Shown here: in pieces, positions 2,411 to 39,242 of the stretch | Numbering within the stretch: position 1 is the first letter of the stretch | Layout: every line of letters starts with the position of its first letter | DNA from: a virus | Strand: one strand, 5' to 3' | Virus record (IMG/VR): IMGVR_UViG_3300002091_000010 | Span: 1-39,242 of that record | Length of the DNA: 39,242 nt | Translations under genes and position numbers: made by a program | The notes under the pieces: model-generated | The model's database searches: none | What the model saw: the letters and a program-made list of their open reading frames with translations, nothing else | What the model was told of the DNA's origin: nothing

Positions 2411-3247
2411 ATGTCTGCTTTATCCTTTTCTCAAGGCAATATGAGCTATGTCCAGTCTAATGGATCAGCTCCAAATAGTGTAACTTTTCCATTTGTTGCA
2501 GCAAGAGCTCCTGCTTCAACCGATATCAGATACGAAGTTGGGAAAATGTGGATTAACACAGTTGCACAAAACGTTTATGTTCTAAGCGCGCTTTCATCAT
2601 TTAATGGCGTAACAAGCGCAAGCTGGACATTACTCGGTGCAGCAGCTGGTAACTTAAATACGTTGACAACAGATGACCTTACCGTCGTGACGCCATCGGC
2701 TGGCAACATTAACCTCGCAGGAACAGGAAGCATCGCAACTTCTGGGTCTGGGGCTACAGCAACAATTGGGCTTACAGGTCTTACTAACCATGCCGTACTT
2801 GTTGGTGCAGGAACAGCAACAATTACCAAGCTAGCAGTTGGTTCAACAGGACAAGCTCTTATGGGCGCAACTGGCGCTGATCCAGCATGGTCCGGCTCTC
2901 CTTCCTTCTCAGGCTCAGTAACAGCCGCAACAACACTTACTGCAACACTTGGCGCAATTACTGCAACAAACGGTAACCTTTCATTGGCAACAGCAGGAAA
3001 CAAGATCATTATAGCAACAGGCGCTAACGCATCTGTTGGCACTTCAGCCGCAATGTCCGGAACTCCTGGCGCTGTAACAGTTGCAACAACTGCAAGCTCT
3101 GCAACAGCTAAGATTTTCTACAGCCGTGCAACTACTGGCGGAACACCTGGCAACGTTTCAATTACAGCGCAAGACGGCACAGGGTTTACTCTTACATCTA
3201 CAGGTAACGAAACATCAACTTTTAACTGGTGGATTATCAATGCTTAG
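2411..3247 (+). CDS. Tail fibre-like protein, 278 aa (Ala/Gly/Thr/Ser-rich). N-terminal domain is shared with the 615-aa fibre.
   Basis: GGAG RBS 8 nt upstream. N-terminus ARAPASTDIRYEVGKMWINT...SSFNGVTSASWTLLG aligns with 8143 ORF residues TRAPTSYDTNYPIQKRWFNK...TSFNGVLQATWVEFMG. Carries the fibre motif PSAGNINLAGTGSIATSGSGATATIGL. Confidence 0.7.
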   Translation: MSALSFSQGNMSYVQSNGSAPNSVTFPFVAARAPASTDIRYEVGKMWINTVAQNVYVLSALSSFNGVTSASWTLLGAAAGNLNTLTTDDLTVVTPSAGNINLAGTGSIATSGSGATATIGLTGLTNHAVLVGAGTATITKLAVGSTGQALMGATGADPAWSGSPSFSGSVTAATTLTATLGAITATNGNLSLATAGNKIIIATGANASVGTSAAMSGTPGAVTVATTASSATAKIFYSRATTGGTPGNVSITAQDGTGFTLTSTGNETSTFNWWIINA

Positions 3248-5975: not shown

Positions 5976-7070
5976 ATGACAGTAACTTCAATGATGGGTG
6001 TTTCAACTGTAACTGGAACAGAAACACAAAGCAAAATTGCTAGTGGCGCTTCCGGAACAATATTGCAATCTACCGGCACTACAACTCTTTGTAATTTTAC
6101 AACAGCAGCTTTCCCCGTGACAGCAGGAACTGCAAATAATGTCTTGACTAGTGATGGAGCCAATTGGGTAAGTTTAGCTCCAGCTGCTACAAGTGTTATC
6201 GTTACAACTACTTTTAGCTCTTCAGGAACTTGGACAAAAAATAGTGCTGCAACACAAGTTCTACTTTTAATGTGGAATGGTGGGGGAGGAGGAGGATCAG
6301 GCAGAAGAGCGACATCGACTACATCAGGTGGAGGTGGTGGTGGTAGTAATGGTTTTGGACTATATTGGTTTGGACCATCTGCTTTTTTTAATACTTCTGA
6401 AACAGTAACGATTGGAAATGGTGGTAATGGTGGTACAGCTATTGCCGTAGATAATACAAACGGTAACCCGGGTCAGAACGGAGGCACAACAAGTATTGGA
6501 AATATAACTTGTCCGGTTCCCGCTACATCTTTTGGGGCTGGAGGAACTACCACAACTTCTACTGCTGGGTCTAATAATTTATGGCGTGTAGTTACTTTAA
6601 ATGCGCCTGTTGCTGCTCAAGGGGCAGGAGTTGCCGGAGGCGCTGGTGGTAATACGACAGGAACTAACGCAGCTATTTCGGGAGCGACAACAAATATTCT
6701 ATATATTCCTTCCGGCGGTGGTGGAGGATCGGGAGCCGATTCGGTTACTGCAAGACAAGCTGGTACGGGTGGAAATTTACAAAAAATTGATGCCACAACA
6801 TTAATTTTAGGTGGTACTGGTGGCATAAGATCAGGAACTATTGCAGGAGGACCAGGGAATATCGGAATTGTTACAGGCGGTGTTTTTTCAGGAGGCACAG
6901 GAGGCGGTGGCGGTGGAGGTTCTACTACGGGGACTAACGGAGGAACTGGGGGCGTTGGCGGTGTTCCAGGTGGGGGAGGCGGCGGCGGTGGAGGTTGTAT
7001 AAATGGCGATACTTCAGGGGCAGGCGGCGCCGGGGGTAAAGGGCAAATTATTATCATAGAGTATTCATGA
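5976..7070 (+). CDS. Fibre-like protein with a C-terminal glycine-rich domain, 364 aa
   Basis: N-terminal fibre-like segment (GTILQSTGTTT...NNVLTSDGANWVSL), then TFSSSGTWTKN..LLLMWNGGGGGGSGRR ... GGVPGGGGGGGGG...GKGQIIIIEYS. Matches the phage glycine-rich tail-fibre domain pattern. Confidence 0.7.
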   Translation: MTVTSMMGVSTVTGTETQSKIASGASGTILQSTGTTTLCNFTTAAFPVTAGTANNVLTSDGANWVSLAPAATSVIVTTTFSSSGTWTKNSAATQVLLLMWNGGGGGGSGRRATSTTSGGGGGGSNGFGLYWFGPSAFFNTSETVTIGNGGNGGTAIAVDNTNGNPGQNGGTTSIGNITCPVPATSFGAGGTTTTSTAGSNNLWRVVTLNAPVAAQGAGVAGGAGGNTTGTNAAISGATTNILYIPSGGGGGSGADSVTARQAGTGGNLQKIDATTLILGGTGGIRSGTIAGGPGNIGIVTGGVFSGGTGGGGGGGSTTGTNGGTGGVGGVPGGGGGGGGGCINGDTSGAGGAGGKGQIIIIEYS

Positions 7071-7936
7071 GTAGTATAATTACAACTTTTGATTCTTCTA
7101 CAACATGGACTAAAAACGCCAAAACCATTTACATGCTTATTTTAATTTGGGGAGGTGGTGGTGGAGGTGGGTCAGGCAGAAGAGCGACAACTGCCACATC
7201 AGGTGGAGGATCCGGCGGAGGTTGTGCAAATGGATTTTATTATTATTTTCCAGCCTCTGCATTTGGAAATACAGAAACTGTGACAATAGGACTTGGGGGG
7301 ACTGGAGCGACAGGTATAACAATAGATAACACTAATGGTTCTGTTGGAAATGCTGGAGGTGTTAGTTATTTTGGAAATATTTCCTGTAGTTCATCTATTA
7401 ATCGTGGAGGCGCAGGAATAAATGGAACTGTTGCAGGCGGTGCAGGTACAGTATTTGCCAGAACAATAGATTTACCAATTTCTACATCAGCAACTTCTAT
7501 AGCAGGAGGTTCAGGAAATTTAACAGATGGATCTACAGCAGCAAATCAAAATTTTTTAACAAGTTTATATCAATATGCTTCTTCTGGAGGTGGTGGCGCT
7601 GGAGCTGATTCAACAACAGCACGAACAGGAGGAAACGGTACTGCTATTACAAAACTCGATGGAACAGTTTTAATAGCGGGTGGTGTAGGCGGAGTTTCTA
7701 CAGGCACGATCAATGGTACTAATGGAAATATTGGTATTGTTTCAGATGGTTATTATACTGGAGGCACAGGAGGCGGTGGCGGTGGCGGAATGGTCGCAGG
7801 AACGTCTGGACTAGGCGGCGTAGGTGGAGTCCCTGGAGGTGGTGGCGGTGGTGGAGGCGGTTCTTTAAATGGAACTTTGTCCGGTGCTGGCGGAAATGGT
7901 GGTAAAGGAAGAGTTGTTGTAATAGAATATTTTTGA
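7067..7936 (+). CDS. Stand-alone glycine-rich domain protein, 289 aa (paralogue of 5976-7070 lacking the N-terminal shaft)
   Basis: ATGA-coupled to the upstream gene. TFDSSTTWTKN..ILIWGGGGGGGSGRR ... GGVPGGGGGGGGG...GKGRVVVIEYF. Exact 18-mer and 26-mer DNA matches with the upstream paralogue. Confidence 0.7.
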   Translation: MSSIITTFDSSTTWTKNAKTIYMLILIWGGGGGGGSGRRATTATSGGGSGGGCANGFYYYFPASAFGNTETVTIGLGGTGATGITIDNTNGSVGNAGGVSYFGNISCSSSINRGGAGINGTVAGGAGTVFARTIDLPISTSATSIAGGSGNLTDGSTAANQNFLTSLYQYASSGGGGAGADSTTARTGGNGTAITKLDGTVLIAGGVGGVSTGTINGTNGNIGIVSDGYYTGGTGGGGGGGMVAGTSGLGGVGGVPGGGGGGGGGSLNGTLSGAGGNGGKGRVVVIEYF

Positions 7937-8142: not shown

Positions 8143-9990
8143 ATGAGCTCAAACCAACAAACGCCTAACAGTTTTTATGTAGTCTCAAATGCTATCTCAT
8201 CGTCAAGCCCTTTTATTGAGGTTTTTGAAACAAGAGCTCCGACCTCCTACGACACTAACTATCCAATCCAAAAGCGTTGGTTTAACAAAACCACAAACTC
8301 GGAATGGATTTTAACAGGTTTCACTAGCTTTAACGGTGTTTTGCAAGCTACATGGGTAGAATTCATGGGAAGTTCTGGAGTTGTAGAGGATTTTGCTGTA
8401 CAAACTGGAACCTCTCCAGTTGTACCATTAGTAAGTACCGTAACTTTTAACGGAGCAGTTGTTCCAGCTGGAACTCATCCAGTACGTACAGATGGCACCG
8501 GGGCTAATACAATGGCTTTAGAAGTTCAGATAAGCCAAGCAATAGCCGCTACAGACGCAACCAAAATAGGCCTTGCAGCATTTGATTCTGCAAGTTTTAC
8601 CGTCGATGCAAATGGCTATGTAAGTTTGGTGGGTGGAAGTGGTGCAGTTATTGAAAAGATTAACTTAGATACTGGGACTTCTCCGATAGTTCCTTCGAGC
8701 GGAGCCATTACCTTGACAGCTGGGACAGTGGCAGCGGGAACACATCCAATTCGAACAGATGGAACAGGTCCTAATACAGCAAAAATTGAGGCTCAATTTA
8801 GCCAAGCAATAGCCGCTACAGACGCCACAAAAGTAGGTCTTTGTAATTTCGATTCAGCACGATTTACTGTGGATGCAAACGGATTTGTCTCTTTGGGTGG
8901 GTCTGGAGTGGTAGAAACTTTGACTGCTGATACAGGTGGTGCATTAGCGCCAACAGCGGGCAACTTTAATATATTTGGGGGAGTTGGCATATCTACTTCC
9001 GGCTCTGGTTCAACTATCACAATAAACAATAAAGGAGCTTCTCCAACATCAGGAGTAGTTAACCTAGGAGTTTCCTATTCCGGCGGGACATTTAAAGTAA
9101 CATCAGCTTCAGGAAGCGCTTTATCAGCAACTAATCCAGGTTATGTCACTTTGCAAGGGAAAACAGCAGGCATAGTTAAGACAGTAGCTGTGACATCTGA
9201 TCAATCTTTTGTGGACGCAACAGGAGCTAGCACTATTAGTGGTAATCTTTTTGGACTAACTACAGGTATAGCTTTTACCCAAGACATTCCATTTTGGATA
9301 TATGCCGTACTTAATGATGCAGAAACAGCAATTTCATTTATGATTAGTCGATATCCAGGTGCAACCGGTTCTCCAGCAGCTGCAAAAATTGGTAAAACAG
9401 GTAGTGCAGTTGCAGATTCACAAGGAAGTTTCTTTGCTTTGAGCAATCCAACTGTAGCTGACTATGAATCTAATCCTTGCCTTAACATTGGATCAATGAG
9501 AATGAGAATGAGTGCTGCCGATGATTGGACAGTGCAAGCATTAGATAATGGAGATGGAATCGGTGAATTTCAGTTATCTAGGGGATTTGTAATGACTACT
9601 GGTCAATTCGGAGCTGCTTCAGGTAAATATTTTTATGATAACGGTGGAACAGCGCCAGCCTTTACATCCACTTCATTTAACTATTATTTCCAAGATTTAA
9701 GTGGGTTTTTTCATTATTTTTTTGAGGGAACGAATGTAAGCACAGCAGGAATTGGAGCAGTTACTCTTTTACTTGCATTGCCTTATATAATAGCAGGCGC
9801 AGTTCATGGAAGCGGATATACAGGGGCAGCGGGAGCCCCAACAGGAACAATTATTCCCAAATTGTTTACAGCATCTACAAATAAAACAGCTTTAGCAGCT
9901 CCGGCGTCTGCTAGATTTTTTCTAAATAATGACTTTACATTAACGACAGATATGAGCATGTGTGGATATATATCAGCCGTTAACTCTTAA
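8143..9990 (+). CDS. Tail fibre / receptor-binding protein, 615 aa, with an internal 89-codon tandem repeat
   Basis: Shares the N-terminal anchor domain with the 2411 ORF. Two 89-aa repeats plus a third degenerate unit. Distinct C-terminal about 300 aa (candidate receptor-binding head). Confidence 0.7.
   Translation: MSSNQQTPNSFYVVSNAISSSSPFIEVFETRAPTSYDTNYPIQKRWFNKTTNSEWILTGFTSFNGVLQATWVEFMGSSGVVEDFAVQTGTSPVVPLVSTVTFNGAVVPAGTHPVRTDGTGANTMALEVQISQAIAATDATKIGLAAFDSASFTVDANGYVSLVGGSGAVIEKINLDTGTSPIVPSSGAITLTAGTVAAGTHPIRTDGTGPNTAKIEAQFSQAIAATDATKVGLCNFDSARFTVDANGFVSLGGSGVVETLTADTGGALAPTAGNFNIFGGVGISTSGSGSTITINNKGASPTSGVVNLGVSYSGGTFKVTSASGSALSATNPGYVTLQGKTAGIVKTVAVTSDQSFVDATGASTISGNLFGLTTGIAFTQDIPFWIYAVLNDAETAISFMISRYPGATGSPAAAKIGKTGSAVADSQGSFFALSNPTVADYESNPCLNIGSMRMRMSAADDWTVQALDNGDGIGEFQLSRGFVMTTGQFGAASGKYFYDNGGTAPAFTSTSFNYYFQDLSGFFHYFFEGTNVSTAGIGAVTLLLALPYIIAGAVHGSGYTGAAGAPTGTIIPKLFTASTNKTALAAPASARFFLNNDFTLTTDMSMCGYISAVNS
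8380..8907 (+). repeat. Tandem in-frame duplication (2 x 267 nt) inside the 615-aa fibre gene
   Basis: Exact 26-mer agccaagcaatagccgctacagacgc at 8533-8558 and 8800-8825 (offset 267 nt). Protein units VVEDFAVQTGTSPVVP...DANGYVSLVGG and VIEKINLDTGTSPIVP...DANGFVSLGG. Confidence 0.85.
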
Positions 9991-10801
9991 GAATTGGATC
10001 GTAAACTTCGTTTAATGGCATTATTGAGTCGATTAAATCTTTCACATCATTATTCCATCGCATTCTTCTGGGAATTTTGACATTAAAGAAAAAGTCCTCG
10101 TCTCTGGTCCAATAATGGTGCATGCGAAAAATAGATCGAGTATTAGACGGGGATTTATAATCATTAATTCTCTCAAAAGCTTCATTTACGGCATAGCCGT
10201 TTAAATATGTAAAATAGTGAGGATTTTGGCAATCTTTTATCATTATAGGCTTAGCTATTGTTTTGATAGACGAATTCCCATGAAAATCATCTTTTGCTCT
10301 CCAAACAAGATGATCAAGCATCTTCTCGCCTTTAGGAATTTTAGAAATATGTGAAGTTCCGTAAAAAGTCCAATTTATAACAACAGCAGAAAAGCTGTCA
10401 TATAGTCTTAATTTATCAATAAGTTTTGAGCCATCAGGGCAAAATATGAATTCATCAGTATCGATAAATGCGCACCATTTAGCCCTTTTTTTGATAGATT
10501 GTGAGCAAATAAAATAAGCGTTGCATTGAATTGCATTCCATTCTTTAGGAGTATTGTATTGATACGGCCAATGAATTAGGTCGACTAAACCAGATTTAAT
10601 ATAAGGATCTAAAATAAGCTCTGGATTATCTTTGCTTAGATTGTCAAATAAATAGAAATGTTGGATGCCTTGTTTTTCATGAAACTCTATCCATTCAGCT
10701 AGAAACCTAGCCTCATCTTGAAAAATAGCACAGACGACAAGATCATATTGATAACTGAATGCCAATAAAGGCCACAGAAGCAAGGCGATTAAATATTTCA
10801 T
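9980..10801 (-). CDS. GT92 (DUF23)-like GT-A glycosyltransferase with an N-terminal signal peptide or membrane anchor, 273 aa
   Basis: MKYLIALLLWPLLAFS leader, then VVCAIFQDEARFLAEWIEFHEKQGIQHFYLFDN...WCAFIDTDEFIF (DxD). This is the pattern I associate with glycosyltransferase family 92. 3' end overlaps the fibre gene by 11 nt. Confidence 0.6.
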   Translation of the reverse strand: MKYLIALLLWPLLAFSYQYDLVVCAIFQDEARFLAEWIEFHEKQGIQHFYLFDNLSKDNPELILDPYIKSGLVDLIHWPYQYNTPKEWNAIQCNAYFICSQSIKKRAKWCAFIDTDEFIFCPDGSKLIDKLRLYDSFSAVVINWTFYGTSHISKIPKGEKMLDHLVWRAKDDFHGNSSIKTIAKPIMIKDCQNPHYFTYLNGYAVNEAFERINDYKSPSNTRSIFRMHHYWTRDEDFFFNVKIPRRMRWNNDVKDLIDSIMPLNEVYDPILKS

Positions 10802-10998
10802 TGAGACTCTCTAAATGTTTCTGTGGTTACTGTTGTAATTGTATAGCTAGAGTGTGACCCCTTTCGCTCAAATTTATCCGTAGTTGGAAGATCCATAACA
10901 ACAACTTTCCTACCAAAAAAGCAGCAGTTGCAAGAATCCCGAACTTTAACGTGTGATTCTGCTCTCATGTGGACGTCTGCTAATATGGGCGTTGTCAT
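10798..10998 (-). CDS. Hypothetical Cys-containing protein, 66 aa, translationally coupled to the GT92-like gene
   Basis: Strong G-rich RBS (aagggggggtatctATG). Stop overlaps the GT92 start (ATGA). CNCC motif. Confidence 0.5.
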   Translation of the reverse strand: MTTPILADVHMRAESHVKVRDSCNCCFFGRKVVVMDLPTTDKFERKGSHSSYTITTVTTETFRESQ

Positions 10999-11059
10999 AG
11001 ATACCCCCCTTTTGACCTAGATTAGTCACAAAGGGGCTTTAATGTAAAACCGCTTTACA

Positions 11060-11260
11060 TTACCAAATTTGCGCGTTCATTGGCAATTCTCTAAGAGTAG
11101 GCCGCACTTCGCCAAGCTCTTGTGATGAGGCTTTGCGCTCAGCTTTAGGCTCGCAAGTTTTAAGATCGCCGTAAGAGTCAACTGTGTAAGTTTGTCCATT
11201 GCTAGTAACGTGAGCATGAATAGAAGCGGAAACAAGCATTGTAGCTAAAATGTATTTCAT
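11060..11260 (-). CDS. Small secreted protein, 66 aa
   Basis: Sec-type leader MKYILATMLVSASIHA, similar to the leader of the GT92-like protein. Weak RBS. Confidence 0.45.
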   Translation of the reverse strand: MKYILATMLVSASIHAHVTSNGQTYTVDSYGDLKTCEPKAERKASSQELGEVRPTLRELPMNAQIW

Positions 11261-11351
11261 AAAATCCTAAAGTTTGGGGGACGATTATCCCTGTGTTGTT
11301 GAATCTTTTGTTCTACGTGGCACGGTGTAAAAAGCCATCTTAAAAAACGTT

Positions 11352-11657
11352 TCATGCAAGCCCCGGAAAAGTAAGTTGATCTTTGGATTCTTTCTTTTTT
11401 CTTCTTTTTTTAGCAGGAAAAACAGGCATAGCAGGGGATAGATCAACAAGGGTAGCTCCGCAATGCTGAATAACAAAACGTTTGAGTTGCATTATTTCCT
11501 CTTGCTGCATAGCGTACATTTTCATGAGGTCGCCATGACGTGCAAACAGGCTTTTTCGAAGATTGTCTTGTGCTTCGGATGTTTTTGCAAGCTCTCGGTA
11601 AATAATGCTAACATCGTCATTTGCTTCAAATAGGGACAGTTGTATTGCGTGCGCCAT
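11352..11657 (-). CDS. Hypothetical early protein, 101 aa (Lys/Arg-rich C-terminus KKRRKKKESK)
   Basis: ORF track. An in-frame stop immediately upstream fixes the start. Competing ORFs 11285-11476 and 11522-11719 overlap it. Confidence 0.45.
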   Translation of the reverse strand: MAHAIQLSLFEANDDVSIIYRELAKTSEAQDNLRKSLFARHGDLMKMYAMQQEEIMQLKRFVIQHCGATLVDLSPAMPVFPAKKRRKKKESKDQLTFPGLA

Positions 11658-11872
11658 GTTCTTCTTCTACTTTTAATATTTTCCATTCTCCAGCCTGTCC
11701 CGGGACAGAAATCCACCATCCAGTAACAATTGGTTGCACGAGTATAGCAGAAGAAACGGATATTTCGGTAGAGCCTTTTTTTAAGGTAACTAACATTCCT
11801 GAATGTCCTTGTAAACTTCTTCTTTTAATTCTTCAGTATTTGTAATCTTTGAAGGTGAATGTTGTATTATTG

Positions 11873-12169
11873 TCATTTAGCCACCTTTTTTTTTGGTTTG
11901 GCTTTAAGGTTTTTTTCTAAATCCTTAATTTTTTTGTCTTGGTTAACAAGAATTGATTGTAGAGCATTAAATTGAGATTCATAGGTCTCAATAAATTGAT
12001 TCATGCGCTTAGTCTTCTCTTCAAGTTGTAACATAAGCTCTTTGATATGAGTACCAAACAAATGATTTTGACTGCATTGTGTCGCACGAAGATGCTCAAT
12101 AGAAGCCCCCCAATTGTAGGGAGCTTCTTTTGTAGCAAAGTAATTTTTAAGATTGTCTAGGAATTTCAT
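11873..12169 (-). CDS. Coiled-coil protein, 98 aa
   Basis: ORF track. Follows RecT in the same operon. Confidence 0.5.
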   Translation of the reverse strand: MKFLDNLKNYFATKEAPYNWGASIEHLRATQCSQNHLFGTHIKELMLQLEEKTKRMNQFIETYESQFNALQSILVNQDKKIKDLEKNLKAKPKKKVAK

Positions 12170-12183
12170 AAATTTTTACCATG

Positions 12184-12990
12184 TTATTGATGTGTTTGAT
12201 TTTTAGCAACCTGCTTTTCGTTCCATGCCATGACGTCTTTGTTTAGCTGTGCTGGCTGTTCTTCGTACCGCTCTAGTACTGTAAGCCATTCCTTTGTCCA
12301 AGCAGCTTCTTTCTTAAGCTTCTTCTTAAAGTGCGCTTTACATACGGTCATGTAGTCCATGTAAAGCTGCTTTACATCATCGTCAAGACCTAGCAAAAGC
12401 ACTTCCTCTTTCGGCTTAAAATTAACAACTTCCTCGATTATTTGCACTTCAGCTTGGTCCATCTCTTCAGAAGTATAGATACCGCTAAGATCTGCCGGGA
12501 ATGCCTTACGTAAAGCTACAGCTTCAGCAACTTTAGCTAGCATCACATGCGGCATCTTCGTCCAGAAGGGATTCGGATACGTTCCGGAGGGTCTAAACTC
12601 ATCCATGTACGCTGTTGCGGCTACATCATGCCATGTGCCATCGACTGTCATCTTTCTAACGTAAGAAGTGGCACTTATGATAATTCCCTTTTCATCGTAT
12701 TCAAATTTAGATTCACGACCAGGTGCATATTTCCCAGTTCTCTCAGCAATGAGACGAAAACCATCAATAGATGTTTGTATCGTTCTAGTAGTTATTCCTG
12801 TTTTATGGTCTTTTCTTGGAATGCTATAGATCTGCTTCATAAAAGGATCAAGCCCTGTGTGCTTGCAAATGTGCATGAACATCTCAAGCTCGGCATCTGT
12901 TGCGCCTTTACATACGGTGTCCTTAAGTAATTGAATTTTCTCCGGTGAGAAGCTTAATCCTTGTGATCTTTTGTCAATTTCTAGTGTCAT
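12184..12990 (-). CDS. recT: RecT-family single-strand annealing recombinase, 268 aa
   Basis: Motifs DPFMKQIYSIPR, TIQTSIDGFRLIAERTGKYAPG and FWTKMPHVMLAKVAEAVALRKAFPADLSGIYTSEEM. Start moved to ATG 12990 (MTLEIDK...) downstream of the track start. Confidence 0.85.
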   Translation of the reverse strand: MTLEIDKRSQGLSFSPEKIQLLKDTVCKGATDAELEMFMHICKHTGLDPFMKQIYSIPRKDHKTGITTRTIQTSIDGFRLIAERTGKYAPGRESKFEYDEKGIIISATSYVRKMTVDGTWHDVAATAYMDEFRPSGTYPNPFWTKMPHVMLAKVAEAVALRKAFPADLSGIYTSEEMDQAEVQIIEEVVNFKPKEEVLLLGLDDDVKQLYMDYMTVCKAHFKKKLKKEAAWTKEWLTVLERYEEQPAQLNKDVMAWNEKQVAKNQTHQ

Positions 12991-13122
12991 TTTCCCTTTT
13001 CCTTGTTTTTTATTTTGTGTTTGTCTAAAACAAAGGTAGCAAATTTTCATAGTTTGCTCCTTTAAGTGTTAAATTTCTTGCAGGCGGCCTAAAAACCGCT
13101 TGTAAGTTTTTTCAAGTCCGAC

Positions 13123-13692
13123 TCAGAAATCTCCCAAGTCAATCGTTTGTTTTGTGTTCTGGAAAAATTCCCGGTACGTTTTAAGCAACCTGAGAAAACC
13201 GTCGAATGCGGCTTCATCATAAAGGTATGAACGCGCAAATTTTCCTTCCTTGCTAAGCTTAACGAATTCGATTGCTTTAATGTCATAACCTTTTTTCCTT
13301 GCCATATGCGCGTAAGCAGATCCTTGGTACTTCCAGGTTTTGCCTTCGTTTGCGCTTGTTTTAAAATCTACTAAAATTAAGTCCCCATTGAGGTCATAAA
13401 TACAGTCGCATTCTCCTGTAATCATGTACTCATCATCATAAAATCTGTCAGGACGTGCGATAAAGCTCTTTCCTTTAGCCCACGCTTCATAGGAGTCAAT
13501 ATACCCATGTAAAGCCAAGGATATATCTCCCGTGGGCAGCCCTTCTTGCATACACTCGATAATTTCATGCACAGCCGTTCCGCGATCACAAGCGGCTTCT
13601 AAAATATCCTTTGGAACTAAACTGATGCCAGAAAAAGGACTTAAAATAGTTGTTACTCTTTCATATAGAGGAAAGGGGAAGTCATCATCCAT
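13123..13692 (-). CDS. PD-(D/E)XK exonuclease (RecE/YqaJ/Cas4-like partner of RecT), 189 aa
   Basis: GTAVHEIIE ... ECDCIYDLNGDLILVDFKT (D..D/ExK core) ... YQGSAYAHM. Start chosen at MDDDFPFP (8-nt overlap with the upstream ORF). Confidence 0.65.
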   Translation of the reverse strand: MDDDFPFPLYERVTTILSPFSGISLVPKDILEAACDRGTAVHEIIECMQEGLPTGDISLALHGYIDSYEAWAKGKSFIARPDRFYDDEYMITGECDCIYDLNGDLILVDFKTSANEGKTWKYQGSAYAHMARKKGYDIKAIEFVKLSKEGKFARSYLYDEAAFDGFLRLLKTYREFFQNTKQTIDLGDF

Positions 13693-14038
13693 AGTTAGCC
13701 TCGTATTCATCTTGTGCGTATTCGTATCTAAAAAGTTTTTGTTGATCGCAAAGATATTCGAAAATACCATCATCGTCTCCACGGATTGCTTTAAGATCGT
13801 CTTCAGTCAAACCACAAACCTCAACGATCATTTCAGCAGAGGAACAGTCAGTTTCTCGGTAAGCTTCAGCAAGAGTTTTAGCAAAGCCTTCAATTAACGC
13901 TGGATTTACATACTCTTCAAGCTTTGAAATAGCTTTAGAATATCTGCGGTCCATTTCATTTTCGATCATCTGTTCTTTAATTAACATGTAATCGTATTCA
14001 TCCATGTATCGGTTCAATTGATAAATATTTCCATCCAT
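13685..14038 (-). CDS. Acidic hypothetical protein, 117 aa (first gene of the leftward early operon)
   Basis: AAGGGA RBS. Diverges from the Cro-like gene. Confidence 0.55.
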   Translation of the reverse strand: MDGNIYQLNRYMDEYDYMLIKEQMIENEMDRRYSKAISKLEEYVNPALIEGFAKTLAEAYRETDCSSAEMIVEVCGLTEDDLKAIRGDDDGIFEYLCDQQKLFRYEYAQDEYEANYG

Positions 14039-24247: not shown

Positions 24248-26338
24248 ATGGATAACCTCTACTCTAAGTTCCAGCCCATCGAACAAGCAAGATGGAACCA
24301 AGCAAACATAGACACCCTCTTCTACGCAGGGGAGCAAAGCTTTGTTAATAGACACTTTAACTTCACGCCTCAAGCTAGTTACCAGCAGTACTATTTCAAT
24401 CTAGTACAACAGCCCGTTAATATGGTGACAGGCTACCAACGTCAGCATCGTAAAAGCATCATGTACCAAGCAGCTGATGGCGCAGATCCTCTAACAACAG
24501 ATCAGTACACACGTTTAATCATGAATGTAGCCCAGAAAGAGGGGATTCATGAGGCTTTTTCTAAGTCATGCGAGTTAAGTGCTGTTGCTGGTATGAATCT
24601 TATGCAGCCCTATTTAGACTATACTGGTGATGATCCTGCTCAAGGCCAACTTAAGGTTAAAGTGTGGGAATACAACAGCTTTATCGTAGATCCATACTTC
24701 CGTCAGCCAGACATGTCCGATGCTCAGTTTGTTTGGTGCCAGGAATACATATCTAAGCAAGAAGCAGAGACAAGATTTCCTGATAAAGTGCAGTCTGTAC
24801 AGCCAATGCAAGGCTCGCCACAACGATATGGCAGGTTCTATTTTCTTCCTGAGAACTACAATATGAGCCGTAATGATCTCATGGTGCTCTCATACGTTTG
24901 GTACAAATGGAAAAAGAAAAAGAAGCGCCTCTATTCACGTAAACGCAACCAATTTTTTGATTTTGCAGGTGGAGATGAGCAACTCGAACAAATTCTTTAT
25001 CATATTGACGATATGGAAGAAGTCACAGTCGAGACGCCGTGCTGGAAGCTTTGTTGTGTTCTTAACGATCAGTTGATGTATCAAGGTGAGAATCCTCTTT
25101 GGGACGGTCCAGAATGCCCTTTTATTCCTAATTACTGGAACTATGACCCGCATATCAGTCAGTACCAGCTTAGATCCCGCTCACTCATTTACCCAATGCG
25201 AGCGCCTCAGTTCCTCGCGAACTTCAAAATCATTAACAACAACGATATCGCTGCGGTAACTATCAACGGAGGCTGGAAACGCAAGATTGGCGCGGTTGCA
25301 AACGAAGACAATCTTAAGAAAGCGGGGAATGGCTACGATGTCATTATCAACGAAGGTTATGAACTCACTGATGTCGAAAAGATTATTCCTTCAGCAGTAC
25401 CAGAATCAGACTTGGCTCTTGCTCAGCAGATGGTTGACCTAATATTTAAAACATCAGGTATTGACCTTGAGAACTGGTCAGGACAGGATGATAAACAGCT
25501 ATCTAGTCTCACACTATTACTTAAGCAAGCAGCTAACTTAATGGTATTCCAGAAGTACTTTGATCAGTGGGACCATGCTTTAAAGCTAGTGGGCGAGCGG
25601 TTACTTCAGATAGCCCTTTACAACTGGAACGCTGAGAAAGTAGCCCTCATGATTGGCGAAGAGCCGTCTCCTCATTTTTACAGCCGTGTGTTTGCAAAAT
25701 ACCAAACAGTTGTTGAAGAAGGCCTTCTCACAGCAACTCAGAAGAACCTTCAAGCACAGCAAATGATGGATATTAATGCCGCATTCGGTCGTGAAGTGCT
25801 ACCTCCATCAATGATCATTAAAGACATGAATATCACCGGCAAAGCAGAGATAATCAAGTTTCTAGAGCAACAAGAGCAGCAAATGCAAGCAATGCAGTCT
25901 GAAGAGATGAATATCAAGCATGCGTTTGAAGAAGCTAAATTGCAAGAAATGATCAGTAAGTCCGCTGCAAACATAGCTACAGCACGTGAAAGACATGGCA
26001 GAGCGGAAGCAGATATCGGCCTATTTGAAGAAAGATTGAGTGAAATTAGTCAGAATAGAGCAATGGCAACTAAAGCAAAAGTTGAAGCTTTAGCTAAACT
26101 TGTTGAGACAATGCATGCATACGGAGAAGTCGAAGCAATGCGTGATATGTCGGCTATTGAGGCTATGGGAGATGATCAGCAAGTAGATGAAGATATAGAG
26201 AAAGCAGACGCTAAACGGTCAGCTCTTGCAAATGAATTTAGGTTATCTATAATGGGTAATCAGCAACAACCGCCTCAAATGGGACAAGAAAGCCCTGAGA
26301 TGGCACAACAAGAGCCTTCGATGGCTCAAATGGGGTAA
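24248..26338 (+). CDS. Portal protein, 696 aa
   Basis: Size and position directly after the large terminase. Gln/Glu-rich helical C-terminus. The frame is open upstream to 24146 (see findings). Confidence 0.7.
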   Translation: MDNLYSKFQPIEQARWNQANIDTLFYAGEQSFVNRHFNFTPQASYQQYYFNLVQQPVNMVTGYQRQHRKSIMYQAADGADPLTTDQYTRLIMNVAQKEGIHEAFSKSCELSAVAGMNLMQPYLDYTGDDPAQGQLKVKVWEYNSFIVDPYFRQPDMSDAQFVWCQEYISKQEAETRFPDKVQSVQPMQGSPQRYGRFYFLPENYNMSRNDLMVLSYVWYKWKKKKKRLYSRKRNQFFDFAGGDEQLEQILYHIDDMEEVTVETPCWKLCCVLNDQLMYQGENPLWDGPECPFIPNYWNYDPHISQYQLRSRSLIYPMRAPQFLANFKIINNNDIAAVTINGGWKRKIGAVANEDNLKKAGNGYDVIINEGYELTDVEKIIPSAVPESDLALAQQMVDLIFKTSGIDLENWSGQDDKQLSSLTLLLKQAANLMVFQKYFDQWDHALKLVGERLLQIALYNWNAEKVALMIGEEPSPHFYSRVFAKYQTVVEEGLLTATQKNLQAQQMMDINAAFGREVLPPSMIIKDMNITGKAEIIKFLEQQEQQMQAMQSEEMNIKHAFEEAKLQEMISKSAANIATARERHGRAEADIGLFEERLSEISQNRAMATKAKVEALAKLVETMHAYGEVEAMRDMSAIEAMGDDQQVDEDIEKADAKRSALANEFRLSIMGNQQQPPQMGQESPEMAQQEPSMAQMG

Positions 26339-37822: not shown

Positions 37823-39242
37823 ATGCCAATACAAGTTATAGAGGGAAGACCTCGCAGAGTTTCAGTAACTGAACAGCTATTGCATGGTGGATTAAGTGGA
37901 GGATTAAATGCGGTTCAGCAGCATCAAGAAAACACCGCGCTAAAAAATCGTGGCATTGACCTTGCTGGCGTGCGTGATCCGAATACTAGACAACAGATTA
38001 TAGCCCAAGAGCTTCAATATGGGCGGAATAGACGAATGGCTGAAGGTTCGCCGTCAATATTAGGTCAGGGAGAAGAAGGTCAAAATCAACCACAGATGGA
38101 CCCAGAGCGCAATAGAGATTTTGTAGAACAAGAAAGACCTCAGAGACAGCCGCTTCCTAAGTTTAATCAGAAGGCGGGTGCTCCTGTCTCAGAAAGAGAA
38201 CAGGGAGAATATTCTAATTTTCCACAAGAAGCTACTACAGGACAAAAAGAGCCTATTAAATCGCCTACACAAATAAAAAAAGAAGCGTTTGATCTTCATA
38301 GACAATCATTAAATACAGCCAATCCAATTTCTCAATCTGATGCGTTAGCTCATTTAGATTCTTTAAATGATCTAAATAGAAAACATAATCAAGATATAGA
38401 AGCCGAAAGAATAATTAGAGAAAACGCGCAAGAAAAATATGGTAATCAAGCAGATATAGCTCTACAAAAGGTTTTAGGGGAAAATCAAATACCTTCCGAT
38501 GAAATGCGAGGAATATTTCAGAAAGAAGCCGAAGAAGCAGCAAAATCCGGAATGAGTGCCGCAGATTTTACAAAACATATGGGAAAAAAAGTAACTCAAT
38601 TTTCTGATATGTTAGATAAAGCCAAAACAAGTCCAAAACCTGAAAGAATTCACAATAAATTTTACAATAAGATTATGGGCAACTCTCGTGACTCCGCTAA
38701 AATGAGAGAAGATATTAAATTTAAAGTACAACCATTATTAGATTTAGGTCTATTTGATGAGGCTAGAAATATTTTAGGAAATGATGTTGGTTATTATCCT
38801 GAGGAAGTAGAAAATATTATATCTTCCTTAGGCGAAAATTCTAAAAAAACAGTGGCAAAACTCCCCGAAATAAAAAAAATTGAACCAAGTTTTGGCCAAA
38901 GAGCTAAACAAATGGGCGGATCACTAGCAGCTTCAGTAATTGGCGGTCCTCTTGCAGGTGCGGCCGCAAACATTTTAGGTGAACCAGATGCATATTACAC
39001 TCCAATGCAAGAAATGGAAATACATGAAAATATTTCTGAAGCGTTAGCTAAGGATCCATCAGCTAATTTAATTTTATTAAGAAAAGCTTATGAAGATAAA
39101 GGTGTAGATTGGAACACTTTTCTTGATGGCGTTAATAAAGCAAGGCAACAAGGTGTTTTTGAACCTGACCCACAACAAGAAAATATGTTTGAAACTTTAA
39201 CATCCCCTCCTTTAAATGGTTTAGATTCGCTTCTTTATGGAT
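37823..39242 (+). CDS. Internal virion / ejection protein candidate. Runs off the window end and continues at 2-97 (479 aa in the circular molecule).
   Basis: ATG at 37823 after GGGGGG. The frame stays open to 39242 and remains in frame through the 77-nt overlap to the TAA at 95-97. Missing from the ORF track because there is no stop inside the window. Confidence 0.7.
   Translation, partial: MPIQVIEGRPRRVSVTEQLLHGGLSGGLNAVQQHQENTALKNRGIDLAGVRDPNTRQQIIAQELQYGRNRRMAEGSPSILGQGEEGQNQPQMDPERNRDFVEQERPQRQPLPKFNQKAGAPVSEREQGEYSNFPQEATTGQKEPIKSPTQIKKEAFDLHRQSLNTANPISQSDALAHLDSLNDLNRKHNQDIEAERIIRENAQEKYGNQADIALQKVLGENQIPSDEMRGIFQKEAEEAAKSGMSAADFTKHMGKKVTQFSDMLDKAKTSPKPERIHNKFYNKIMGNSRDSAKMREDIKFKVQPLLDLGLFDEARNILGNDVGYYPEEVENIISSLGENSKKTVAKLPEIKKIEPSFGQRAKQMGGSLAASVIGGPLAGAAANILGEPDAYYTPMQEMEIHENISEALAKDPSANLILLRKAYEDKGVDWNTFLDGVNKARQQGVFEPDPQQENMFETLTSPPLNGLDSLLYG
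39166..39242. repeat. Terminal direct repeat, copy 2 (identical to 1-77)
   Basis: Read directly. Confidence 0.95.

Follow-up and report, generated by a model that had tools for sequence, protein, structure and literature searches.

The virus record IMGVR_UViG_3300002091_000010 of IMG/VR was analysed over positions 1 to 39,242, on one strand read 5' to 3', and this whole stretch of 39,242 nucleotides is referred to here as the window. Beside its tail-fibre genes, the window contains an open reading frame (ORF) of 273 amino acids (aa) on the minus strand (positions 9980-10801) which encodes a genuine and intact member of glycosyltransferase family GT92 that is probably active. It is very likely that this ORF is an accessory gene for an exported GT92 enzyme. 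The best overall reading, to which we give a tentative preference over the alternatives weighed below, is that the gene is host-derived cargo and that its exported product would modify a surface glycoconjugate.

Identity of the GT92 enzyme and its N-terminal leader

In a Pfam scan the ORF matched PF01697 (Glyco_transf_92) at 83.7 bits, where the cutoff is 23 bits, and with E = 2.1e-23, residues 20-237 being aligned with profile positions 2-223 of 249. The only other Pfam profile matched was GT2_4, as a secondary hit, and no match to the ORF or to the small ORFs next to it was found in PHROGs, NCBIfam or PADLOC. Homologues of the protein numbered 239, and all of the 120 that were listed carry PF01697. 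A family profile built from 24 homologues matched the solved structure of GalS1 (8d3t) in the PDB with E = 6.6e-8, and the DTDEF of the family was aligned with the DVDEY of GalS1. The AlphaFold2 model of the 273-aa protein, with a predicted local distance difference test (pLDDT) score of 94.3 and a predicted template-modelling (pTM) score of 0.90, led to the same enzyme: when it was searched against the PDB with Foldseek, ranks 1-4 were all GalS1 chains (top 8d3z; E = 9.5e-14 to 1.5e-12; query TM score 0.60-0.62), followed by SpsA and other GT-A enzymes. Its best viral structural matches were GT92 domains of amoeba-infecting giant viruses. At the nucleotide level no similarity to the region 9000-12500 was found among GenBank phages, and the protein gave only 29-31% matches there, to cyanophages and one uncultured phage.

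The expected sequence motifs, VVCAIFQDEARFLAEWIEFH, HFYLFDN and FIDTDEF, are all present in the protein. An alignment of about 100 sequences was used to follow the active site, including 18 phage, 53 chlamydial, 6 Rickettsiales and 4 leaderless copies. Nine residues (E36, W37, D58, D114, D116, E117, G148, K180 and Y230) never vary in it. H195 and H229 are each altered in one chlamydial copy, and H41 is replaced by Tyr in the 6 Rickettsiales copies; all three histidines are invariant in 18 of the 18 phage copies. The catalytic base of GalS1 is reported to be a histidine, and the characterised GT92 enzymes are beta-1,4-galactosyltransferases (PMC11062476). By analogy with these enzymes, an inverting, uridine diphosphate (UDP)-hexose-dependent chemistry is predicted for the window enzyme.

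The enzyme matches the same profile, has the same GT-A fold and bears the same metal-binding DxD motif as the GT92 (PF01697) enzymes of eukaryotes, namely the plant beta-1,4-galactan synthases GALS1-3, the Caenorhabditis elegans proteins GALT-1, GTNT-1, BAH-1 and SRF-2, and Populus GalS1 (8d3t, 8d3z), while its identity with GalS1 is about 16-17% over the aligned structure. The type II Golgi enzymes of the family likewise have an N-terminal hydrophobic segment and a catalytic domain on the non-cytoplasmic side (PMC13520123). In contrast to eukaryotic GT92 enzymes, the window enzyme is phage-encoded and has its nearest relatives in bacteria; it is also a bare catalytic domain of 273 aa, lacking a CBM95 domain and a stem region (PMC11062476). 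The GT92 domains of the giant viruses Indivirus, Terrestrivirus and Sylvanvirus (E = 2.5e-20 to 4.6e-17, TM score 0.71-0.74, 21-24% identity) come from the same protist-associated setting. At least two of them differ in belonging to larger multidomain proteins, of 509 aa with an annotated LicD domain in Indivirus and 961 aa in Sylvanvirus, whereas the Terrestrivirus match has 293 aa; moreover, these are viruses of eukaryotes, for which a Golgi or endoplasmic reticulum topology is the norm.

The leader of the window enzyme consists of K2, a hydrophobic core of about 13 residues with a proline, and then A-F-S before Y17. A hydrophobic N-terminus, defined as an 11-residue window with a Kyte-Doolittle value of at least 2.0, was found in 111 of the 117 full-length homologues, and the median length of the uncharged N-terminal stretch in the 117 was 16 residues. 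The residues ahead of this stretch have a net positive charge in 96 sequences and a net negative charge in none. The N-terminal flank is more positive than the C-terminal flank in 103 of 116 database homologues and in 74 of 81 genomic copies, and an N-in, C-out topology is predicted because the positive-inside rule was applied to these flank charges. By sequence heuristics, the features of a Sec signal or type II anchor could all be recognised, i.e. a positive n-region, an h-region, small residues at -3 and -1, and the charge bias. With its short proline-containing core followed by A-F-S, the leader seems closer to a Sec signal that is cleaved off than to a stable anchor, and such a Sec-type signal would put the predicted catalytic domain outside the cytoplasmic membrane. 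One gene caller began the gene at an internal TTG (P0001, 261 aa). However, the ATG at 10801 is favoured as the start because the leader is conserved at the protein level.

Leaderless copies of the enzyme, beginning directly at the catalytic domain, were found in metagenome-assembled genomes (MAGs) of Nitrospirota/Troglogloeales and in one genome labelled 'Verrucomicrobia' (L010, L012, L031, L021), and the copy in Obscuribacterales is part of a larger multidomain protein. Since the copies in Nitrospirota MAGs are without it, the leader is regarded as a feature of the branch formed by Chlamydiota, Rickettsiales and phages, all copies of which were seen to bear one. In the Rickettsiaceae copies an extra segment of about 40 aa follows the leader.

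These results bear on a large part of the original prediction, which had been made from the letters of the window. The ORF coordinates and sizes, the 11-nucleotide tail-to-tail overlap with the fibre gene, the ATGA at 10798-10801, and the motifs and leaders that it had quoted were all read again in the sequence. Its assignment of the protein to GT92, with a GT-A fold and a correctly placed DxD, was borne out, as the profile hidden Markov model check and the structure-prediction check that it had proposed both favoured it. The N-terminal export or anchor signal that it had pointed to is likewise supported by the predicted leaders of the homologues.

A variable cargo slot and the cellular relatives of GT92

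Besides the window, the GT92 gene was found in 17 related phage loci (L001, L084-L086 and L088-L100), and in each of them both fibre homologues and recombination genes lie only a few kilobases (kb) away. The gene is not always oriented in the same way: it is convergent with the last fibre gene in the window, L001, L084 and L085, lies between fibre genes in L086, and is co-directional in L093 and L095-L097. To obtain an unbiased sample, 20 relatives were also collected through the N-terminal domain of the fibre protein, which is conserved. Only 1 of these 20 loci carries GT92, on the same contig as L088, and in at least 8 of the 20 the fibre and RecT/exonuclease anchors are both visible and the stretch that separates them lacks GT92. 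The gene is thus patchily present, as is expected of a moron. In a GT92-less relative, the slot past the last fibre gene is occupied by a leader-bearing GDSL/SGNH hydrolase (L169, 13046-13678, minus strand; 47.7 bits against a cutoff of 32.9), and the same slot holds small proteins with a leader in L158, L161 and L176 and with a lipobox in L160 and L171. It thus seems to be a place where cargo destined for export accumulates. The phage GT92 copies are 35-54% identical to one another and have kept both the leader and the fibre-adjacent position; it is an accessory gene that phages have gained on more than one occasion.

In a scan of species-representative genomes, 356 loci were found to encode GT92 relatives, and cellular taxonomy was counted over the best 80 of them. 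The Chlamydiota label was carried by 51 of the 80 (Parachlamydiaceae, Waddliaceae, Rhabdochlamydiaceae and Simkaniaceae), a Rickettsiales label by 6, and 12 were unclassified. Because GT92 is the only thing that these cellular loci have in common with the window, they are regarded as chromosomal genes and not as prophage remnants; in a Waddliaceae MAG the gene sits after cbb3 oxidase genes. GT92 paralogues are often clustered in chlamydial genomes, with 100 copies in 81 loci. Two other genes were seen in bacterial GT92 loci. In six chlamydial loci there is a gene for a protein of about 344 aa that has a leader and a GRLGNQL motif (e.g. L005, 3049-4782, and L058, 4663-5823, both on the minus strand); this protein looks fucosyltransferase-like but has no Pfam match. 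Five loci encode a nucleoside diphosphate-sugar 4,6-dehydratase.

In a neighbour-joining tree the phage copies are polyphyletic, forming at least 4-5 groups interleaved with chlamydial copies, and the group containing the window enzyme adjoins sequences from Chlamydiae and Parachlamydiaceae. This interleaving fits a repeated exchange of GT92 between phage and host. The window has a guanine plus cytosine (GC) content of 40%, and its tetranucleotide usage is closest to that of Parachlamydiaceae loci (r = 0.93-0.94 for the top four), by a measure which partly tracks GC. Relatives of the phage carry a further protein of eukaryotic type, a U-box/RING protein of 283-294 aa (L149, 8631-9482, and L150, 538-1422, both on the minus strand; 32.3 bits against a Pfam threshold of 21.4). 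Its gene lies between the terminase and the portal, and the portal of that relative is 76% identical to that of the window. The U-box is a eukaryote-type E3-ligase module, as expected in bacteria living within eukaryotic cells.

Taken with the reservations given in the next section, we consider it moderately probable that Chlamydiota are both the source of the gene and the host of the phage. The host would most likely be a Parachlamydiaceae-like chlamydia inside a protist. The idea that the phage infects an intracellular, eukaryote-associated bacterium had been raised in the original prediction as a premise for one of its two readings, and it gains support here, as the nearest cellular homologues come mostly from Chlamydiota, together with Rickettsiaceae.

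Proposed function and competing explanations

If the enzyme is host-derived cargo acting on a surface glycoconjugate, the following course of events may be envisaged. During infection, the exported enzyme would reach the periplasm or the outer surface, where UDP-sugars of eukaryotic host-cell origin would serve as donor. A hexose would then be added to an envelope glycoconjugate, for example lipooligosaccharide or an outer-membrane protein. The phage receptor would be altered in this way, and either superinfection would be blocked or the progeny would be kept from sticking to debris. We regard this mechanism of envelope or receptor modification as possible, and it is put forward with reserve. 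The gene is regarded as accessory phage cargo for the envelope or for interaction with the host, built on an exported Golgi-type GT-A enzyme, and its logic probably depends on the host living inside cells.

The supply of donor is the difficulty that such an enzyme raises. Rickettsia prowazekii takes up host UDP-glucose. It has been reported that in Chlamydia trachomatis UDP-glucose enters the inclusion lumen via the host transporter SLC35D2 and is used there by the secreted glycosyltransferase GlgA (Gehre et al. 2016; PMC4829429). The nucleotide-sugar paradox is therefore weakened, because the hosts considered here are obligately intracellular and UDP-glucose is imported into the C. trachomatis inclusion lumen. 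The original prediction had called an exported GT-A enzyme odd for a phage. This holds in so far as nucleotide sugars are normally cytoplasmic, whereas in the context of an intracellular host much of the paradox is removed (PMC4829429). The taxonomic pattern fits the use of host UDP-sugars, which would explain why a leader-bearing Golgi-type enzyme is concentrated in Chlamydiota and Rickettsiaceae and is leaderless in the Nitrospirota MAGs of free-living type. GlgA shows that a bacterial glycosyltransferase can use a host nucleotide sugar beyond its own cytoplasm, but it is a GT-B enzyme, secreted by type III and not phage-borne, whereas the window enzyme is a GT-A enzyme with a Sec-type leader. 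As for the target, functions at the envelope are favoured because of the tight linkage to fibre genes and because exported hydrolase and lipobox cargo occupies the same slot. In nematodes, GT92 enzymes make surface glycans which decide the attachment of viruses, bacteria and lectins (PMC13520123).

Temperate phages of the P22 and Sf6 type carry receptor-altering cargo beside their tailspike or fibre genes, such as the GtrABC glucosylation genes and Oac acetyltransferases, and the GT92 gene of the window is similar to these in position and plausible role. It differs from the Gtr module in that a GtrA flippase, a GtrB (GT2) and a GT-C partner are all missing: nothing in Pfam, PHROG or NCBIfam matched the ORFs on either side, and a membrane protein with many passes and the size of a GT-C enzyme is not among them. 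Furthermore, Gtr uses a lipid-linked donor, whereas a lone exported GT-A enzyme would need an extracytoplasmic nucleotide sugar. Neither a tailed chlamydiaphage nor any bacterial or phage GT92 enzyme was found described in the literature searched. As far as we know, all phages so far established for Chlamydiota are small Microviridae.

Several observations weigh against an exported enzyme that modifies the envelope of a chlamydial host. The topology call for GT92 rests on heuristics, i.e. hydrophobicity and charge bias, and cysteine columns are not conserved in pairs in the homologue alignment, which gives no disulfide support for an extracytoplasmic site. The literature searched gave no donor, acceptor or activity for any bacterial or phage GT92. 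A few of the best 80 cellular loci are labelled Verrucomicrobia, Nitrospirota, Obscuribacterales or Bacteroidales, of which some 'Verrucomicrobia' labels may go back to an older GTDB name for Chlamydiota. The neighbour-joining tree has no support values. Around the chromosomal GT92 copies there is no recurrent lipopolysaccharide or outer-membrane-protein neighbour, and no neighbour is dominant. In contrast to Gtr-type temperate phages, no integrase was found among the approximately 30 window ORFs that were scanned against Pfam (not every ORF was scanned), nor was an integrated copy of the window phage seen. A classical role in lysogenic conversion is therefore unsupported, and seroconversion in the temperate-phage sense, which had been suggested from the sequence, is not shown.

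The one relative that looks integrated does not help in this respect. L149 lies on a 379-kb contig (ERZ25039482 contig_49541) beside housekeeping genes (TsaD and an IscS-like gene). However, its flank has 56% GC against 39.5% in the phage part, and the tetranucleotide correlation is -0.20 for the flank against 0.91 for the phage part. There is a step in GC from 58% to 38% at about 5,900 (about 76,000 on the contig) with no transfer RNA gene or integrase nearby, and the homologues of the TsaD in the flank come from a 'Candidatus' taxon. The integration was rejected as evidence for the host because of the composition mismatch, the sharp GC step and the missing transfer RNA gene or integrase. The junction belongs either to a chimeric long-read contig or to an unusual integration into a high-GC 'Candidatus' bacterium, which would be evidence for a non-chlamydial host.

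The main rival is that the enzyme is a secreted effector. After Sec export, it would leave the bacterium by, e.g., type II secretion or outer-membrane vesicles and glycosylate a target in the inclusion lumen or membrane or in the protist cytosol, so that the phage would spread a host-manipulation factor. Much of what has been described is also consistent with this, as the copies with a leader come mainly from bacteria that live obligately inside cells, the enzymes of the family resemble those of the eukaryotic Golgi and have their nearest viral structures in amoeba-infecting giant viruses, the U-box protein of a relative indicates that the clade bears effector-like cargo, and chlamydial genomes have several GT92 paralogues. 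We consider it unlikely all the same, since envelope functions are suggested both by the tight linkage to fibre genes and by what else the slot can hold, an exported GDSL hydrolase or small proteins with a lipobox, and no known glycosylating effector belongs to GT92. Glycosylating toxins and effectors such as Legionella Lgt/SetA, the clostridial toxins and NleB are not of the families matched by the window enzyme, and none of them is in the Foldseek top 50.

Less probable again, and in our view distinctly improbable, is an anchored enzyme facing the cytoplasm. Its N-terminal helix would be a tether, and cytoplasmic sugars would be transferred onto lipid-linked precursors of lipooligosaccharide or other glycans or onto virion proteins, e.g. 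the fibre. In ordinary bacteria nucleotide sugars are cytoplasmic, the leaderless members in Nitrospirota MAGs are presumably cytoplasmic as well, and the gene adjoins fibre genes; in mycobacteriophages, virions are glycosylated by phage-encoded glycosyltransferases. Against these points, about 90% of members are predicted to be N-in, C-out from the way their charges are distributed, a core of about 13 residues with a proline is short for a stable transmembrane helix, and cleavage would agree with the small residues found at -3 and -1. In addition, GT92 is distal in an early recombination operon and not in the late structural operon.

That the gene is a neutral passenger, recently taken from a host chromosome and of no benefit to the phage, is very improbable: its patchy distribution (1 of 20 relatives) and the polyphyly of the phage copies would agree with this, but 18 of 18 phage copies have kept their full length and show no change in the catalytic residues, and a long retention under selection in several phage lineages is indicated because the leader and the fibre-side position are kept even at the low identities found among these copies.

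A wider picture can be drawn in which a large uncultured clade of roughly 35-42-kb tailed phages of environmental chlamydiae in protists shuttles Sec-exported eukaryote-type enzymes between chlamydial genomes, i.e. GT92 and, as its counterparts in related phages, U-box ligases and GDSL hydrolases. In this case the exported GT92 subfamily would be a GT-A class working outside the bacterial cytoplasm, which would be possible only since the bacterium is bathed in host nucleotide sugars. This picture as a whole is speculative and somewhat doubtful. If the host inference is true, the window would give the whole genome of one member of an abundant clade of tailed phages that infect obligate intracellular bacteria, and genes could pass between endosymbionts by way of these phages. 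The existence of exported GT92 enzymes would point to glycosylation in the periplasm or beyond that is run on host-cell UDP-sugars. The enzyme is small, confidently modelled and directly assayable.

Locus layout and the phage genome

The features of the window are listed in Table 1. The 615-aa fibre-like ORF comes after Gly-rich proteins of tail-fibre type, has no Pfam match of its own, and overlaps the GT92 ORF tail-to-tail by 11 nucleotides (9980-9990). All genes from about 14038 down to 9980 are leftward, including those for RecT and the PD-(D/E)XK nuclease. The GT92 ORF and the ORF with the CNCC motif share a stop-start ATGA at 10798-10801, and ATGA overlaps also link the 101-aa ORF, the 32-aa ORF and the second 66-aa ORF. 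A scan for promoters and terminators gave 12 promoter-like sites against 12.8 expected and no terminator flanking GT92, with a sigma-70 model that may not suit chlamydial promoters. Because overlaps chain the operon and no promoter or terminator signal above chance isolates the last three genes, GT92 is regarded as the distal gene of a leftward early recombination operon. We infer an early expression of GT92 from its position at the end of this RecT/exonuclease operon. With regard to its own promoter and terminator the gene does not behave as a moron in the window, being bound to the upstream operon by stop/start overlaps, whereas in the relatives L084-L086 it stands alone and is flanked by oppositely oriented genes.

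Table 1 Features of the window around the GT92 gene and elsewhere in the phage genome
Feature	Position	Strand	Remarks
GT92-family GT-A glycosyltransferase gene, 273 aa	9980-10801	-	Last gene of the leftward operon
N-terminal leader, codons 1-16, MKYLIALLLWPLLAFS	10754-10801	-	Sec-type signal peptide or possibly short signal anchor (predicted); A-F-S at -3 to -1 is the candidate cleavage site
DxD motif D114-T115-D116 of the GT-A active site	10454-10462	-	
66-aa ORF with CNCC motif	10798-10998	-	ATGA-coupled to GT92
Second 66-aa ORF, signal-peptide-like start MKYILATMLVSASIHA	11060-11260	-	Orphan
32-aa ORF	11257-11355	-	ATGA-chained between the 101-aa ORF and the second 66-aa ORF
101-aa ORF	11352-11657	-	40%-identical homologue in related phage L084
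98-aa ORF	within the 11873-13782 stretch of the leftward unit	-	
RecT	12184-13050	-	PF03837, 94.3 bits; kept in related phages
PD-(D/E)XK nuclease	13123-13782	-	PDDEXK_1, 23.7 bits; kept in related phages
Tail-fibre-like protein, 615 aa	8143-9990	+	Convergent with GT92; N-terminal domain conserved and C-terminus variable across the phage clade
278-aa protein	2411-3247	+	K1-lyase_C chaperone domain at the end
Gly_rich_2-like protein	5976-7070	+	17.9 bits, below the 24.3 cutoff
Gly_rich_2 protein	7067-7936	+	34 bits, above the 24.3 cutoff
SpoVG-like protein, 119 aa	17453-17812	+	28.0 bits, just below the 29.6-bit cutoff
P22-type portal	24248-26338	+	167.9 bits
Tail protein, 1074 aa	33502-36726	+	E1_FCCH, 57.8 bits; weak endosialidase beta-barrel match

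The ORF with the CNCC motif is preceded by a strong Shine-Dalgarno sequence, AAAGGGGGG, 7 nucleotides upstream. Among 1.84 billion representatives it has a single homologue, of 64 aa (P0368), in which the first 27 residues are near-identical (TP[IV]LADVH..DSCNC) and the remainder is unrelated. The strong Shine-Dalgarno sequence and this one relative suggest that the ORF is probably a true small gene, although GT92 is not its partner. A second match to the same ORF, the 642-aa protein P0367, was rejected as spurious because it is a translated tandem repeat. The second 66-aa ORF has no match in Pfam, PHROG, NCBIfam or PADLOC, and neither 66-aa ORF has a homologue in the 17 GT92-carrying phage loci, the 20 fibre-anchored loci or the bacterial GT92 loci. 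The strain variants L146 and L147 were set aside as a test of the small ORFs, since they are more than 99.7% identical to the window and hence not independent.

The least probable of all the explanations is the three-gene cassette of the original prediction, in which the 66-aa proteins would act with the glycosyltransferase, e.g. as acceptor peptide, chaperone or regulator: the ATGA coupling with its strong Shine-Dalgarno sequence, the similar MKY leader of the second 66-aa ORF and the distant 64-aa homologue speak for it, but the small ORFs are strain-specific, GT92 travels alone between oppositely oriented genes in relatives, and the ATGA overlaps run through the operon as a whole and so are not special to the pair formed by the CNCC ORF and GT92.

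The window is a complete assembly of circular type, of about 39,165 bp, with an end overlap of 77 nucleotides (1-77 and 39166-39242). A 479-aa gene from about 37823 spans the end junction and is split by the window ends. At least two independent sequencing runs (SRR5247223 and SRR6214541) yielded the same genome as contigs of 39,195 bp, and short contigs that match it came from further samples. Proteins identical to the GT92 enzyme and the portal of the window are also recorded on a 113-kb contig (113,464 bp). The portal had no match at 1e-10 among 50,697 GenBank phage records, whereas more than 2,400 homologues were found in metagenomes. The top 120 of these have 73-82% identity, and many lie on 36-42-kb contigs. 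The portal clade is abundant and has no cultured representative.

The window also encodes a helicase and an HTH_36 protein, and it contains no transfer RNA genes. Long poly-Gly runs occur in one of the two consecutive proteins matching Gly_rich_2 (5976-7936). In the GT92-carrying relative L085 (16809-20846), genes for a ParA/MipZ ATPase and for HicAB and PemK toxin-antitoxin systems were found, none of which is in the window; they suggest a plasmid-like prophage lifestyle in part of the clade.

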